The notes under the pieces are model-generated. The model saw nothing but the letters and a program-made list of their open reading frames with translations, was not told the DNA's origin and made no database searches. Of a stretch of DNA of 64,000 nt, positions 15,338 through 60,227 are shown one piece after another. Origin of the DNA: Shigella phage Sf15; the sequence record MF158041. One strand, 5' to 3'. The stretch's first letter is position 1; every line of letters starts with the position of its first letter. Both the position numbers and the translations under genes were made by a program.

Positions 15338-15541
15338 ATGAAGAAGAACATCTGTAGAGTGGACTACGGTGAAGTAGTCGATGATGACGGAGTAGTTATT
15401 TACAGAGTTTGGGCAAGTGATTATTCAACCGTTGTAGAGTCTTTAGATAACTACATCAATGGGACTCGTGAAAACGTCAGAGCAACTAATCTTGATTCGT
15501 TAATAGACACTTCTCGAAAACGGAGAAAGAAAGATGAATGA
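15338..15541 (+). CDS. hypothetical small protein
   Basis: 67 aa ORF. Confidence 0.4.
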   Translation: MKKNICRVDYGEVVDDDGVVIYRVWASDYSTVVESLDNYINGTRENVRATNLDSLIDTSRKRRKKDE

Positions 15542-15833
15542 AGTCTTTGACCCTTATGCACCCCAAGATTCTTGGGAGGCTGATAGGGAGGCGGAAATGG
15601 AGAGTTATATCTGTCCAATGGATATAGAAGAGATGAAAGACTTTGTATCTTTCAGATTCTCTAAAGAGATTGAGAAGCTAAAACTTTCTCAGGCTCAAGT
15701 AGCAACTGTTTGTGAAATCTCACAGAGTCGTGTGTCAAATATCATTAACGACCCTCAAAAGATTTCTTTAGAGTACATGCTTAATGCTTGTACAAAACTT
15801 GGTGTAAACTTTAACTTAAGGCTGGCAGATTAA
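15534..15833 (+). CDS. XRE-family helix-turn-helix DNA-binding protein
   Basis: LSQAQVATVCEISQSRVSNI matches HTH_XRE pattern. Confidence 0.5.
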   Translation: MNEVFDPYAPQDSWEADREAEMESYICPMDIEEMKDFVSFRFSKEIEKLKLSQAQVATVCEISQSRVSNIINDPQKISLEYMLNACTKLGVNFNLRLAD

Positions 15834-40895: not shown

Positions 40896-42512
40896 TTATC
40901 GTCTTAGCCCCTGATATGGATTACTCTTCATAATATCTGTATGAGCACCCATTGAAGGTGGCTTGAATAGTTTAACTTCGTTTAGACTGTTGAAAGCATC
41001 ACTGGTAGCATCCACTTGGTCATCCTTAGTACGACCATCACCACAAAAACCTTCTAGTTCTTGGAAATATGCTTCATTCCAAGAGCCTCTAACAATTTTG
41101 ACAAGTCCTGCCTCAGAAGCAGCAGAGAAACCCGCAAAACGGGTGACTTTATCTTTATTTGTTGGTTTAGCTCTTGCTCGGAAACCTTTCTCAGCAAGTT
41201 TTCTAATAAGGGAGGTTGCGTAGGATTTACCAGCAGCGCCGGGGTCTTGAGGGATAAAAATACCTGTGCGCTTACCATCACCTTCAGCAGTTTGGTTAAT
41301 TTGTGTTTCAACTCCAGAAGGTCTATCTCTAAATCTTACTACGTTAATCACATAATAGCAACCATCTTTTTTAGATTTACCCATTTTAACACCTGCTGTC
41401 CAGTCAGGGTTAGGGTTAACCTCAGAAGGTAATGTTGCTGCTAAGTCCCATGCTCTTACGTCAAATACGTCTGCTGGAACACTATCAACAATTTCACACC
41501 ATTGTCTTTGCCAGTAGTTTGAACCTTCAGCACGAGCTTTCCAGTTACCAAAACGTAAACGTGCAACGTTAACTGGTGTGTTGTTTTCTAATTTACCACG
41601 ATACTTAGGTTCAAGGAAATCTAGAATAGGGTTGTCATCGATTGTACCGGAAATAAAGGTATATGTTTGAGGAATCTCAAGAGGGAACATTTCAAGAATT
41701 TTATCTCTATCCCAATCAGAAACCATAACACCATCATTCATAACATACCAACGAATCCTACCGCACTTCTCTGGGTCTGGATATCCAGCATCATCTAGGA
41801 AAGGTTCTACCCAATCATAAATAAAGTGGTCTCTATCTGGGTTCATTGAGATTTTCATATATGAGTCACCTTCAGCACCAGAACGTAAACGTGTCTGAAG
41901 ATATGAAATCTGCGAAGCAGAGAAGTGTGTACCTTCGTCGAAATAAATAGCTGAGTATTCGATACCTTGGTGACCTTCTGAGTGTTTCTCAAGTTCCAAA
42001 TAAGTAAACTTGATAGTTGCTCCAGAAGGGAAAGTAATAGTCATTTTCTGTTCATGTGGAACTCCACCAAACTTACCAAATAACTTTTTAGCCGCAGGCC
42101 ACAGACCACCTTGTAACTGTGTTGTATTTCGACGGAAATAAACAGCGTTATAGTTTGGGTCTTCAATAAACCTTAGTGAGTCCATTAATAGAGCAGCAGT
42201 CTTACCAGCACCAGCAGCACCACCATATAGTACCAAGTCAGCATTAGTGTTCAAGAATACCTCTTGAGAGCCAGGCTGTGGAGCTACATAGTTCTTGTCA
42301 GTCATCAGTTTAAAGATGAGTCTTACTTGGTCTGGAGTGTATCTTAATAAAGTCAGAATTTGAGTTGGAAGGAATTTAGAGGGGTCTTTACCAAAGGATT
42401 TGATAATATCTTTTACTTCTTCAGAAAGCCCCAACTCACCTGCTAGGACTTTCCTTACATCTTCCACTCGCTTCTGCTTAATAACATTTAAGTCCATTAA
42501 GCACCTCTGCAA
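40896..42512 (-). CDS. terminase large subunit
   Basis: Walker A VLYGGAAGAGKTAA, C-terminal nuclease-like acidic residues, first large gene of the late operon. Confidence 0.85.
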   Translation of the reverse strand: MQRCLMDLNVIKQKRVEDVRKVLAGELGLSEEVKDIIKSFGKDPSKFLPTQILTLLRYTPDQVRLIFKLMTDKNYVAPQPGSQEVFLNTNADLVLYGGAAGAGKTAALLMDSLRFIEDPNYNAVYFRRNTTQLQGGLWPAAKKLFGKFGGVPHEQKMTITFPSGATIKFTYLELEKHSEGHQGIEYSAIYFDEGTHFSASQISYLQTRLRSGAEGDSYMKISMNPDRDHFIYDWVEPFLDDAGYPDPEKCGRIRWYVMNDGVMVSDWDRDKILEMFPLEIPQTYTFISGTIDDNPILDFLEPKYRGKLENNTPVNVARLRFGNWKARAEGSNYWQRQWCEIVDSVPADVFDVRAWDLAATLPSEVNPNPDWTAGVKMGKSKKDGCYYVINVVRFRDRPSGVETQINQTAEGDGKRTGIFIPQDPGAAGKSYATSLIRKLAEKGFRARAKPTNKDKVTRFAGFSAASEAGLVKIVRGSWNEAYFQELEGFCGDGRTKDDQVDATSDAFNSLNEVKLFKPPSMGAHTDIMKSNPYQGLRR

Positions 42513-42518
42513 ATAGAA

Positions 42519-42725
42519 TTATTCAGAAACTTCTTCAGATTCCTGTTTAGGTTCTACACCAAACTTTTCATCTACTAAATTAAGAAGTTTATCCATCGTT
42601 GCTTCTTGTGGGTTAATACCAGTTGCAACAATTAAACGTTCAGCCACAGCCATTACAGTTGCTTGAAGCATCTGAGCCTGTTTCTGAGTTTCATATAGTT
42701 CTTTGTAAACATTAGTCTCGTTCAT
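42519..42725 (-). CDS. hypothetical small protein upstream of terminase
   Basis: 68 aa, GGAG RBS; too small to call small terminase. Confidence 0.4.
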   Translation of the reverse strand: MNETNVYKELYETQKQAQMLQATVMAVAERLIVATGINPQEATMDKLLNLVDEKFGVEPKQESEEVSE

Positions 42726-42761
42726 TGTATTTCTCCAAAATTAAAGTTATAGTGATTCTCC

Positions 42762-42788
42762 TGAAAAAAGACGGTGCAGAGACCGTCA
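42762..42788 (-). terminator. intrinsic terminator closing the tRNA transcription unit
   Basis: minus-strand hairpin GACGGT-CTCTGC-ACCGTC followed by TTTTTT. Confidence 0.55.
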
Positions 42789-42944
42789 AGGAGAAACCAC
42801 AATGTATGCCAGAGACATACTGTATAGGTCTTCCCATAAAGTATAACTCTATAAAAAAGCCCTGTCTAAAAATACTCTCCGGTAGCGAAAGGGAGAATAC
42901 TCATAGCAGGGCATAATAACTTTGAGAGAGATATTAATATAAAT

Positions 42945-43020
42945 TGGAGTATCGGAAGGGACTCGAACCCTCATAAACCTGTTTTGCAGACAGGCACATA
43001 ACCATTTCTGACACCGACAC
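42945..43020 (-). tRNA. tRNA-Cys (GCA)
   Basis: manual fold: 7-bp acceptor, T-arm, anticodon loop shows codon TGC on plus strand; CCA encoded. Confidence 0.7.
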
Positions 43021-43026
43021 ATAATT

Positions 43027-57252: not shown

Positions 57253-57703
57253 AGAGGTAGTGCGTAAAGCTTTGCTTAACAACGGAACTAAAGATGATAT
57301 GTACAAAGATATCGTTGCAGAATTTGGTTGTTCAAGACATGCTGCAAAGGTTCTTCTTCATAGCTTTATCTGGGAGTGTTCAGAAGCTTACATGGTTCAT
57401 GCAGCTTTTTCAGAATCTCACTTACAAGCCGATAAAGACTTGTTAGCACCATATGACTTACGTGAACAAGAGCATGAAAGTGCCATTAAAACAAACACTG
57501 TGTACATGATTAGAGACACTCATACAGATTTGGTAGTAGCAACTATCAAGATTGAGAGGGAAGTTCCTGATTGTGGTTTTGAAGGTGATATTAATAGTGC
57601 AGATTTAGACACGGTATTCAGTCGTGGTGGAAGATGGTTGGTAGGTTATGATGGTTATATCACAGTTGATTACCAACGTTCAAAGTATCAGATTAAAGTG
57701 TGA
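57239..57703 (+). CDS. hypothetical protein
   Basis: start chosen at MKNVKEV with GAGGA RBS. Confidence 0.45.
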   Translation: MKNVKEVVRKALLNNGTKDDMYKDIVAEFGCSRHAAKVLLHSFIWECSEAYMVHAAFSESHLQADKDLLAPYDLREQEHESAIKTNTVYMIRDTHTDLVVATIKIEREVPDCGFEGDINSADLDTVFSRGGRWLVGYDGYITVDYQRSKYQIKV

Positions 57704-58371
57704 TTATGGGACACCTACTGAAGAAGAGTTGGAAGAACTTAACAGATATGGTTCCCCATCTGAAGAGGAAGAGAAAGAACTCCGAAGAATGGGAAGCAAT
57801 TACTAAGAAATGTTTTAAGGATTTGATAGAGATGAAAAAGTTTGAACTTGAAAGAAAGTATCTGGTACTTAGCCTAGATGATATCAACACACATCTTGAC
57901 GAAAGTGAGAAGTGGTCTTTAGACTTACTTGTTAATCGACTTAAGATGGAACGAGAAGATTCAGGTAAAGAGCCACTTGAAGGTATCTTTGTCAAGAAAT
58001 CTTATCCGTTCTTTGAAGATACTTTGAAGAAACTTGAGATGTATGTTAAGCAGCAGAACCGTAAAGAGTTCTCTATGATTTCTCTTGGTGGACAACAAAT
58101 GCTGGTTATGGAAGATATAAACCCTAAGAGAACCAACAAAGGTGTTTGTATCAAGGTCACAGGTAAAGAAGAATTTGTTGAATATGACATACTCAGACAC
58201 ATTATAGATGGTTTGGGTGTTGTACTGAACATGAATGAATACCATATTAGTTCACACCCGATTAAGGGTGACCAGATAATGATTCAGGTAAGAGAACGTC
58301 ATAGTGGGTTCACACACTTCTTCCAGACTTCTAAAACTTCATTGCAAGCCATGCTTAGTGAATTGATGTAA
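57700..58371 (+). CDS. hypothetical protein
   Basis: 223 aa ORF, last gene of plus-strand block. Confidence 0.45.
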   Translation: MIMGHLLKKSWKNLTDMVPHLKRKRKNSEEWEAITKKCFKDLIEMKKFELERKYLVLSLDDINTHLDESEKWSLDLLVNRLKMEREDSGKEPLEGIFVKKSYPFFEDTLKKLEMYVKQQNRKEFSMISLGGQQMLVMEDINPKRTNKGVCIKVTGKEEFVEYDILRHIIDGLGVVLNMNEYHISSHPIKGDQIMIQVRERHSGFTHFFQTSKTSLQAMLSELM

Positions 58372-58377
58372 GACTAT

Positions 58378-58402
58378 ACAGCCCCTTAATTGGGGCTTTT
58401 TA
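58378..58402 (+). terminator. intrinsic terminator
   Basis: GCCCC-TTAATT-GGGGC hairpin followed by TTTTT. Confidence 0.65.
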
Positions 58403-59905
58403 TTGAGTAAATTTACGAAATTTATAATTTTTATAAAATTTGGGATTCACTCCGTTCATCTTGGGTCACCATGATATGTGATAAAATATCTATACCCTTC
58501 TAAACACCCTCTCTAAGCATCATCTCTATATAGTATTATATAGTATCTATATAGCCTCTTAGTCCCTAAATAGTGCTCTCTATATAGCCCTCTATAAAGC
58601 CTTCTAAGCCTCCCATTAATCAACCCTATACAATCCTTCCTAACCTCTTCCTAGCCCCTTAGAAGCCCCTATACTCATCTTAATCTCTAGGTAAACGATA
58701 GTACCCTATATAGCAGAATCACTAGGTATTACTAAGCCTCTATATAGACTGTTATATAGCACTAAACAGGTATTCCCTGTAAAGGCTTATCCTACAAGGT
58801 CTAACACGGTACTAACAAGGTCTCTTATAAGCCTGTTAATTCCTGTTTTATATAAGATAGTGTATAGATAGTTATTCAGAATTATAAAATTTTTATAAAA
58901 TAGACTAGGTAGGTTACTTTTTAGGTTCTTTGGAGATTCTTGAAAATATCTACTTAGGATGTATATCTGCTTGGTAGCCCTTAACAGCCCTGTAACATCC
59001 CCTTTGCAAAATCTTAAAATATCATTAACAATCTCTTAACAACTCTTCCAAGTCCTTAACATCTCTTCAGAGTTCTTAACAGTCTCTTAACAGAACTAAC
59101 AAGAGCTTAACAAGTCTGTAACATTACTAACAAGAGTCTAACAAGTTGCTTATAAGTTGCTAAATAGTTAAATCTTAAGAGTTATTTTGTTAAGATAATT
59201 AACAAGTTCTAAACCTTTTTAACAAGCTATTAACATGGTCACTATCTCTTGGTCTATAGTTCCCTTCCCTTCTTAGTGATTCTCTATAAAGCCCTCTTAA
59301 AAGCTCTCTGTAGCTCTGTATAGCCTCTTCTAAGGTTCTCCCTAGTAACTACACCCCAACTACCTGTATAGCTCTTTATAGGGCTTTCTAGGGGCTTATA
59401 TAGGGACTTCAAAGAGTCTAACAAGCTCTTAACATACCTCTAACAAGGATTTAACAAGGGGCTAACAAGTCTCTAATAAGCATAACTATGTAGCATTTGT
59501 TAAGATTTTGTTAAGAGAATGTAAAGGGGGCTAACTTTTACGTTACTTTTAAGGTTCTTTTACGTTACTTTGAAGACTCCATAACATACTTTAAAGCTAT
59601 TATCAAGCCCCTGTTTAAGCATTCACAAGATACTAACGAGATAATAAAGCTTATACCCTTATAAGATTCTTTTAAGGCTCTAGAAAGCTCTATAAAGGGC
59701 TTTTAAGAGTAGGTTAATATGATTGCTTAAGATGAGATGATAAGCCCGTATAGAGCGTTATAGAGCGTTTTAGGGATTGCCCTTCCCTTTCGGGTTATGG
59801 GCTTATATTTAAGTTGATTTGATAAGAGGATATAGAGTAAGCTATAGAGTTATTGTTCTAAATGTATGAGATAGGTTCTATCGAATCAATGGTAAGATTC
59901 TAGGA
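58403..59905. repeat. ORF-free region with clustered short repeats (CTATATAG palindromes; TAACAAG / CTTAACA iterons)
   Basis: no ORF over 60 aa on either strand; many direct and palindromic short repeats visible by eye. Confidence 0.6.
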
Positions 59906-59909
59906 AGAC

Positions 59910-59935
59910 GTAAAAAAGCCCCATCTAAGGGGCTG
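59910..59935 (-). terminator. intrinsic terminator for the minus-strand small-gene array
   Basis: minus-strand hairpin GCCCC-TTAGAT-GGGGC followed by TTTTTT. Confidence 0.55.
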
Positions 59936-59975
59936 TAAAGGTGTCTGGGGCTATTTGCCCCGTTGCGGCGACTTG

Positions 59976-60227
59976 TTAGTTATTGAAGCCGTCAACTTCA
60001 TAGTAAAGCGTGATAAGAGAATCACCCCAATAGTAAGAGGATTTGCCATCCTTTAAGACTTCTTGTTTTACTTCTTTCCAGAACCACTCAGATTGATTGT
60101 AGTCCTGAATAGTTGCTTTTAGACACATATCAACCATGCCAAAAACATCGCCAGTTCCAACCATATCAAATTTAACATCTAATACATGGAAGCCAAAATT
60201 GTTAACAGTTGCGTGGATAGTAGCCAT
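59976..60227 (-). CDS. hypothetical small protein
   Basis: 83 aa, preceded by conserved leader cassette. Confidence 0.45.
   Translation of the reverse strand: MATIHATVNNFGFHVLDVKFDMVGTGDVFGMVDMCLKATIQDYNQSEWFWKEVKQEVLKDGKSSYYWGDSLITLYYEVDGFNN

Follow-up and report, generated by a model that had tools for sequence, protein, structure and literature searches.

A repeat-packed non-coding region of a Felix O1-like Shigella phage very probably holds its direct terminal repeat and concatemer junction

Introduction

What function is served by 1.5 kb of phage DNA that lies between two gene blocks and is packed with short palindromic and direct repeats? This question is raised by positions 58403-59905 of the DNA analyzed here, a stretch of 64,000 nucleotides from Shigella phage Sf15 (MF158041) that is referred to below as the window. 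The region matched 255-269 phage records, all but two of which belong by name to the Ounavirinae (Felix O1-like myophages), and its best matches were Mooglevirus phages of Shigella and Citrobacter with 93-96% identity. By these matches the source of the window is a Mooglevirus, a Felix O1-like myophage. Elsewhere the window carries genes for the large terminase subunit (TerL), portal, protease, capsid, tail, DNA polymerase and primase-helicase, as well as 23 tRNA genes.

The Felix O1-like phages described in PMC8303462 and PMC11737134 were reported as lytic and without lysogeny genes, and TerL of Felix O1-like phages was placed in the clade of phages with direct terminal repeats (DTRs; PMC4837284). 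For UAB_Phi87, a DTR of 608 bp was determined by Bal31 digestion and run-off sequencing (PMC4837284), while PhageTerm yielded a DTR of 613 bp for Ro111lw (PMC6454146) and direct terminal repeats for H12 (PMC11737134). For Pr103Blw the reported length is 581 bp (PMC8303462), and the genome paper of Felix O1 inferred short terminal repeats (PMC3185647).

Results

The region separates convergent gene blocks and shows no sign of coding

The rightward gene block ends with the gene at 57700-58371, after which an intrinsic terminator follows on the plus strand (58380-58397); its GGGGCTTTT part is invariant in ten relatives. On the opposite side, an intrinsic terminator on the minus strand (59917-59934) closes the leftward block, whose last gene is located at 59976-60227 (minus strand). 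The flanking gene blocks are thus convergent and the region is bounded by terminators, as an earlier note on this DNA had stated. Its claim that no open reading frame longer than 60 aa is present on either strand was likewise borne out, the longest within 58403-59905 being 36 aa (58513-58623) and 46 aa (59284-59424), both on the minus strand.

Most of the matching records lack any annotation in the region. In a few automated annotations (e.g. ESh19-22), it contains three to four tiny genes for hypothetical proteins, which would be in line with a region that encodes small proteins, an alternative already named in the earlier note, or non-coding RNAs. We regard this as highly improbable, as both open reading frames longer than 30 aa within 58403-59905 are interrupted by stop codons in most relatives, a 3-nt periodicity was absent from the region in the same-base autocorrelation, and Rfam gave no match in the region, either at the gathering thresholds or at E ≤ 1. 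Furthermore, promoter-like sites were found there at chance level (8 vs 9.1 expected), and both flanking terminators face into the region. Small genes should not be annotated here.

Short repeat units recur every 10-11 bp

To describe the repeats, copies were counted inside and outside the region. The motif CTATA[TA]AG was present in 8 copies in the 1.5-kb region vs 8 in the remaining 62.5 kb of the window, and the self-complementary CTATATAG in 5 copies, which corresponds to an approximately 83-fold enrichment. The second motif type was represented by 20 copies of [CT]TAACA in the region, with 23 copies of TAACA in 58372-59975; TAACAAG occurred 11 times on the plus strand and not once on the minus strand of the region, and was enriched approximately 61-fold. 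With these enrichments the description of the region as packed with repeats was confirmed, and the motifs are far more frequent than by chance. To arrive at the eight palindromic copies that had been counted between 58520 and 58770, the variants TTATATAG and CTAAATAG must be counted as well, since exact CTATA[TA]AG accounts for six.

Each of the two motif types is a variant form of a single CTNNNNAG unit. This unit is present in 58 copies, that is 38.6 per kb vs 8.9 per kb elsewhere in the window, and the commonest distances between units are 11 and 10 nt. In the autocorrelation of identical bases, lags 10 and 11 exceeded other parts of the window by 9-10 standard deviations and harmonics were detected at 20-22 and 31-32, and the six 500-nt windows that scored highest for a periodicity of 10-11 bp all lay within 58251-60000, no other part of the window showing this period. 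It can reasonably be inferred that these are iteron-like arrays that may bind a protein.

Record ends of relatives place both termini within the region

For terminus mapping, ten intergenic regions from three genera were aligned with MAFFT. In the record of Ro111lw (MH571750) an identical repeat of 613 bp is found at both ends, and in that of CRP22 (OQ708377) an identical repeat of 579 bp. The first base of both repeats aligns with position 58973 of the window and the last base with 59531. The record of H12 (PP952733) opens at the base homologous to 59531, that of ECP2307 ends at the 59531 homologue, and the records of pEP20, SPJ41 and NBEco004 begin at the homologue of 58973. Altogether, ten records (Ro111lw, CRP22, H12, ECP2307, pEP20, SPJ41, NBEco004, BPS15Q2, ECOH1 and NJ12) begin or end 0-14 nt from the homologues of 58973 or 59531, where it has to be kept in mind that records from one phage family are non-independent samples. 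In Erwinia phage M7 (Kolesnikvirus), which shares almost no nucleotide similarity, a repeat of 444 bp is present at both record ends, and its boundaries are 2 nt (left) and 3 nt (right) off the homologous positions.

Two further records were considered and set aside as maps of the termini. The ends of the KMM2 record (58985 and 59046) share only a 64-bp overlap, which is an assembly overlap. The UAB_Phi87 record (JN225449) was not opened at a physical end, and the experimentally determined termini of this phage could thus not be mapped base by base. A Mooglevirus record running from end to end was not found.

Both mapped positions fall into conserved blocks of the 10-sequence alignment. The longest invariant run across the whole 1.6 kb has a length of 24 nt and spans the left terminus (58958-58981), with GATGTATATCTGCTT before and GGTAGCCCT after the boundary between 58972 and 58973. 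The right terminus is situated in the invariant AAGGGGGCTA; here the block AAGGGGGC followed by TA (59524-59533) contains the boundary between 59531 and 59532, at which the records of Ro111lw, CRP22, H12 and ECP2307 begin or end. Homology to the relatives places the predicted cuts at these two boundaries, each in a block that is invariant across genera, and the same homology shows that the architecture of the repeat is conserved across the subfamily.

Since the record ends of the relatives and the conserved blocks fall there, the TAACA-rich middle of the region (58973-59531, plus strand) is assigned as a DTR of 559 bp. This sequence occurs once in the window, because the two copies of the virion DNA would be collapsed into one, as in a concatemer junction. 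Taken together, this is very probably the terminal-repeat region (concatemer junction) of a Felix O1-like phage with linear virion DNA that carries short, exact direct terminal repeats. The earlier note had overlooked this central point, namely that by homology the middle of the region is the DTR and that both genome ends lie inside it.

Layout of the flanks and of the terminal repeat

The left flank (58403-58972) is unique non-coding DNA that would lie by the right genome end, immediately ahead of the DTR copy on the right in virion DNA, and 61% of its columns are invariant in ten phages of three genera. An AT-rich near-palindrome, TTTATAATTTTTATAAAAT, was found twice by repeat search. Its first copy (58417-58439) contains an invariant TTTATAAAA, and its second copy (58879-58901) lies about 70 nt before the left terminus and overlaps an invariant run of 17 nt (58887-58903). 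The 40-nt stretch at 58397-58436, which overlaps the T-tract of the terminator, consists of 90% A+T and belongs to the top 0.01% of 40-nt windows. Between the two near-palindromes the motif map displays CTATATAG, CTATAAAG and TTATATAG units (58526-58760), followed by two TAACA units at 58801 and 58812.

Within the DTR, three arrays of YTAACA(A)G units on the plus strand (58981-59146, 59199-59236 and 59418-59470) and a central patch of CTATAAAG-like units (59254-59406) were mapped. Ahead of the right cleavage block, an invariant AAGCATAACTATGTAG (59478-59493) is followed by inverted TGTTAA units (59498-59514, with units at 59498 and 59509). Most of the repeat carries its units in a single orientation, and the inverted ones are located at its right edge. 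The first and the last 70 nt of the DTR form imperfect inverted repeats in the window as well as in Ro111lw, CRP22 and M7, and in each of these none of 500 shuffles reached the score. Predicted curvature was highest in the window over the DTR, if modestly so, with a mean of 12.1 vs 8.4 degrees per turn in a wedge model.

The right flank (59532-59905), unique non-coding DNA which by its position relative to the termini would lie by the left genome end, starts with 3.5 tandem 11-nt units of TACGTTACTTT (59534-59571), the number of which varies among relatives (ESh20). These are followed by CTTATAAG, CTTTTAAG, CTAGAAAG and CTATAAAG units of the form CTTWTAAG (59658-59707), which include an invariant run of 19 nt (59658-59676), by 2.5 copies of TATAGAGCGT (59749-59773) and by a small GC-rich hairpin (59779-59802).

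A palindrome at the right cut, formed by AATGTAAAGG and CTTTTACGTT, was considered and dropped, since its folding was no better than that of shuffled sequences (z -1.4) and it is not kept in M7. G-rich hexamers are seen at both boundaries, GGTAGC and GGGGGC in the window and AGTGGC twice in M7; they were not relied on because the boundaries of M7 are offset by 2-3 nt.

The arrays are conserved and the repeat varies in length by steps of 11 bp

Conservation of the motifs and their positions in related phages, which had been suggested as a check, was found. In ten phages of three genera, TAACA is present 23-31 times on the plus strand vs 4-10 times on the minus strand, and for most of the units the alignment column is the same in 8-9 of 9 relatives. 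M7 retains a period of 11 bp as well as the arrays of TAACA and of inverted TGTTA; its right flank contains YTTAGAAG instead of CTATAAAG-type units.

The lengths of the DTR in 49 relatives cluster at 558, 570, 580, 591, 603 and 613 bp, that is with a period of 11 (resultant 0.81), and the alignment displays differences in the number of units between relatives. As the records are related to one another, these steps of 11 bp may reflect few slippage events. A tentative and rather unlikely interpretation is that the approximately 58 phased units form a scaffold for a packaging-initiation protein, a candidate nucleoprotein scaffold that would fix how the two cut sites are rotated relative to each other. 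If true, this would explain why the length of the DTR changes only by about one helical turn, and also why the flank motif co-evolves with the lineage, from the CTATAAAG type in enterobacterial phages to YTTAGAAG in Erwinia phages.

Origin, partition and landing-pad functions

The earlier note had offered four functions for the arrays: replication origin, packaging site, partition site or landing pad for protein. Among these, packaging gained support, no positive evidence was obtained for an origin, and a partition site is implausible for a virulent phage; none of the seven flanking ORFs is ParB-like.

An alternative reading is that the region is, or also holds, a replication origin. Phased repeats would then be iterons for an initiator and the AT-rich palindromes an unwinding element, and this agrees with the iteron-like arrays in helical phasing, with the 90% A+T stretch (58397-58436) together with the conserved near-palindrome that occurs twice, and with the insulation of the region from transcription. 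T7 has secondary origins near its genome ends, so the roles of origin and terminus can coexist. However, of the 24 matches to the DnaA box (at most one mismatch) and 8 matches to the IHF core in the window, none lies within 58372-59975. Searches with the seven neighbouring ORFs yielded no initiator, helicase loader or Rep: their PHROG matches are all to families of unknown function, and in Pfam they gave no significant match, the sole hit being below the Pfam cut-off. Moreover, the primase-helicase and polymerase genes are 47-55 kb distant. The GC skew, which had been proposed as a further check for an origin, does turn at about 58 kb, but this is one of four turns in the window, each of which coincides with a switch of the gene strand, so that gene orientation explains it. 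The conserved blocks, finally, are already accounted for by the terminus mapping. We therefore consider an origin unlikely.

Alternatively, the arrays could offer a landing pad to an abundant protein that binds DNA and has no part in packaging, for example a nucleoid protein of phage or host that protects or tethers the injected ends, or one that pauses ejection in the manner of the injection-stop region of T5. Some 58 phased units that share a general form and extend over 1.5 kb, located at both ends of the virion DNA and inverted where the repeat begins and ends, would suit such a protein, and the role of the analogous short-repeat arrays of T7 is, to our knowledge, still not settled. On the other hand, two-step injection is not described for Felix O1-like phages in the reports cited here, and the motifs are essentially absent from the remaining window, so that there is no wider regulon. 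This explanation appears improbable to us. We infer that the arrays may instead be phased protein-binding sites for packaging.

Comparison with T7, Felix O1-like phages and iteron-type origins

Dunn and Studier reportedly noted arrays of short repeats at the concatemer junction of T7. In the T7 record (NC_001604), the junction comprises a 160-bp repeat and 17 [CA][CA]TAAAG units that share one orientation and lie inside the repeat and next to it, many of them 13 bp apart. In PMC13236587, the packaging sequences of T7 are ascribed to mapping by Chung and Hinkle (1990), and packaging of T7 phagemids is described, with reference to the same work, as requiring the terminal repeat together with the origin and the pac site.

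The terminal repeat of either system is short, exact and located in non-coding DNA, and the ends are fixed and sequence-specific. In both, a unit of 7-8 nt is present in many copies of one orientation within the repeat and on both its sides, which is a likeness of arrangement for which no sequence homology is claimed, and the unit sequences are similar (CCTAAAG in T7 vs CTATAAAG and CTAACAAG here). Relative to T7, our phage has a repeat of 3.5 times the length in a non-coding region of 2-3 times the length, and the approximately 58 units follow a period of 10-11 bp, about one helical turn, vs 13 bp in T7. The densest arrays are found inside the repeat here and mainly outside in T7, and here units are inverted at the right edge of the repeat. 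Whereas T7 has the promoters A0, phiOL and phiOR, none was found in or adjoining the region, and terminators lie close by on both sides. A further difference is that TerL here belongs to the Terminase_6 type of Pfam, with no small subunit annotated in the adjoining stretch searched in relatives. The phages themselves are unrelated, one being an Ounavirinae myophage and T7 an Autographiviridae podophage.

The DTRs of UAB_Phi87, Ro111lw, Pr103Blw and Felix O1 are the same element as the one described here. Identity to the repeats of Felixounavirus is 73-82%, and the bases at both boundaries are identical. The repeat of our phage is shorter (559 bp), and the Mooglevirus records examined leave it unannotated. 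By homology, the region thus belongs to the already reported terminal repeats of the Felix O1 type, and its kind is known. Beyond the length of the repeat, the four papers on these phages (PMC4837284, PMC6454146, PMC8303462, PMC3185647) report no unit arrays, phasing, conserved cleavage blocks or length steps of 11 bp, and we found no paper in the literature that describes the arrays.

With iteron-type origins the region shares arrays of short direct repeats spaced by about one helical turn. An AT-rich segment is likewise close to the arrays, although here it overlaps the T-tract of the terminator. Unlike these origins, it has no adjoining initiator gene and no DnaA or IHF sites, and its arrays coincide with the physical ends of the genome.

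Discussion

The enzyme expected to cut at both termini is TerL, which is encoded on the minus strand at 40896-42512, matches Terminase_6N (E 5.7e-42) and Terminase_6C (E 2e-32) in Pfam and is annotated as terminase large subunit in relatives. Most likely it is the DNA flanking the repeat that the packaging enzyme recognizes. Positions 42400-44100 of the window, which cover part of this gene and adjoining DNA, are 99.9% identical to Shigella phage Sf13. No small terminase subunit is annotated in relatives within the searched stretch adjoining TerL.

For the phage described here, a course of events comparable to the T7 model can be proposed. Replication would lead to concatemers with one copy of the repeat per junction. 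TerL, probably together with a separate partner that recognizes DNA, would assemble on the approximately 58 phased units of 10-11 bp, and the terminase would cut at the two conserved blocks. Staggered nicks together with strand-displacement synthesis, the route proposed for T7, might then turn the single copy at the junction into two, while the two flanking terminators would keep transcription away from the site of assembly.

The mapping by homology fixes the predicted true start and end of Mooglevirus genomes, whose records, as far as they were examined, are unannotated at this site or were opened elsewhere. It also yields two invariant cleavage-site sequences, GATGTATATCTGCTT joined to GGTAGCCCT at the left and AAGGGGGC joined to TA at the right terminus, which would be usable to orient and trim assemblies across the subfamily. 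Felix O1-like phages are widely used in typing and biocontrol. For DTR phages beyond T7 and T3, the region offers candidate elements for the recognition and duplication of genome ends that are unusually numerous and conserved and that also vary in nature.

Sequence variation beside the termini

The homology-placed direct terminal repeat of Sf15 (58973-59531) is flanked on both sides by sequence that differs among the relatives. On the left, Moogle and VpaE1 carry a 24-nt insertion, TTGATTCGGTAGAATCTACCTCAT, between positions 58957 and 58958, which is immediately 5' of the left cleavage block (58958-58981) in the orientation of the window. This insertion includes a small palindrome (GATTC..GAATC) and is common to these two phages of different genera, while it is missing from the other eight of the ten aligned sequences. 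On the right, an 11-nt unit, TACGTTACTTT, is present in 3.5 copies at 59534-59571, immediately outside the right terminus. In the alignment, ESh20 was found to have more copies of this unit than the 3.5 of the window, demonstrating that unit number varies directly beside the cut site.

The repeat boundaries deposited for Erwinia phage M7 (NC_041978) are offset from the Felixounavirus boundaries by 2 nt on the left and 3 nt on the right. Despite this offset of 2-3 nt, the sequence around them is homologous to that of Felixounavirus. The offset could reflect a genuine difference in cutting or a different way of determining the ends.

Hairpin, AT-rich near-palindromes and the HTH protein

A conserved GC-rich hairpin, GCCCTTCCCTTTCGGGTTATGGGC, is located at 59779-59802. 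Its inner stem is altered on both sides in Ro111lw and CRP22, which have CCCC/GGGG as compared with CCC/GGG; the folding energy of the hairpin was not significant (z -1.4). Two copies of an AT-rich near-palindrome of the TTATAAAATTTTTATAAAAT type, with invariant cores, were identified at 58417-58439 and 58879-58901. The first copy falls within a 40-nt stretch of 90% A+T, which belongs to the most AT-rich class of the window. Both copies could serve as an unwinding element or as a protein site.

The protein encoded at 15534-15833, described in the earlier note as an HTH protein, is indeed of this type. Its matches are generic (XRE-type, Pfam HTH_3; PHROG 'transcriptional regulator'), and no tie to the repeat arrays emerged.

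Terminase region and divergence from Sf13 and Sf14

Directly upstream of the TerL gene (40896-42512, minus strand) lies a cluster of 23 tRNA genes (42948-47611, minus strand). Among the relatives listed, no small terminase subunit is annotated in the stretch adjoining TerL (42400-44100). Over this same TerL/tRNA stretch, Shigella phage Sf13 is 99.9% identical to the window, whereas identity across the terminal repeat is only 93.5% with Sf13 and 96.6% with Sf14. This gap in sequence identity suggests either mosaic recombination or non-coding ends that change faster.
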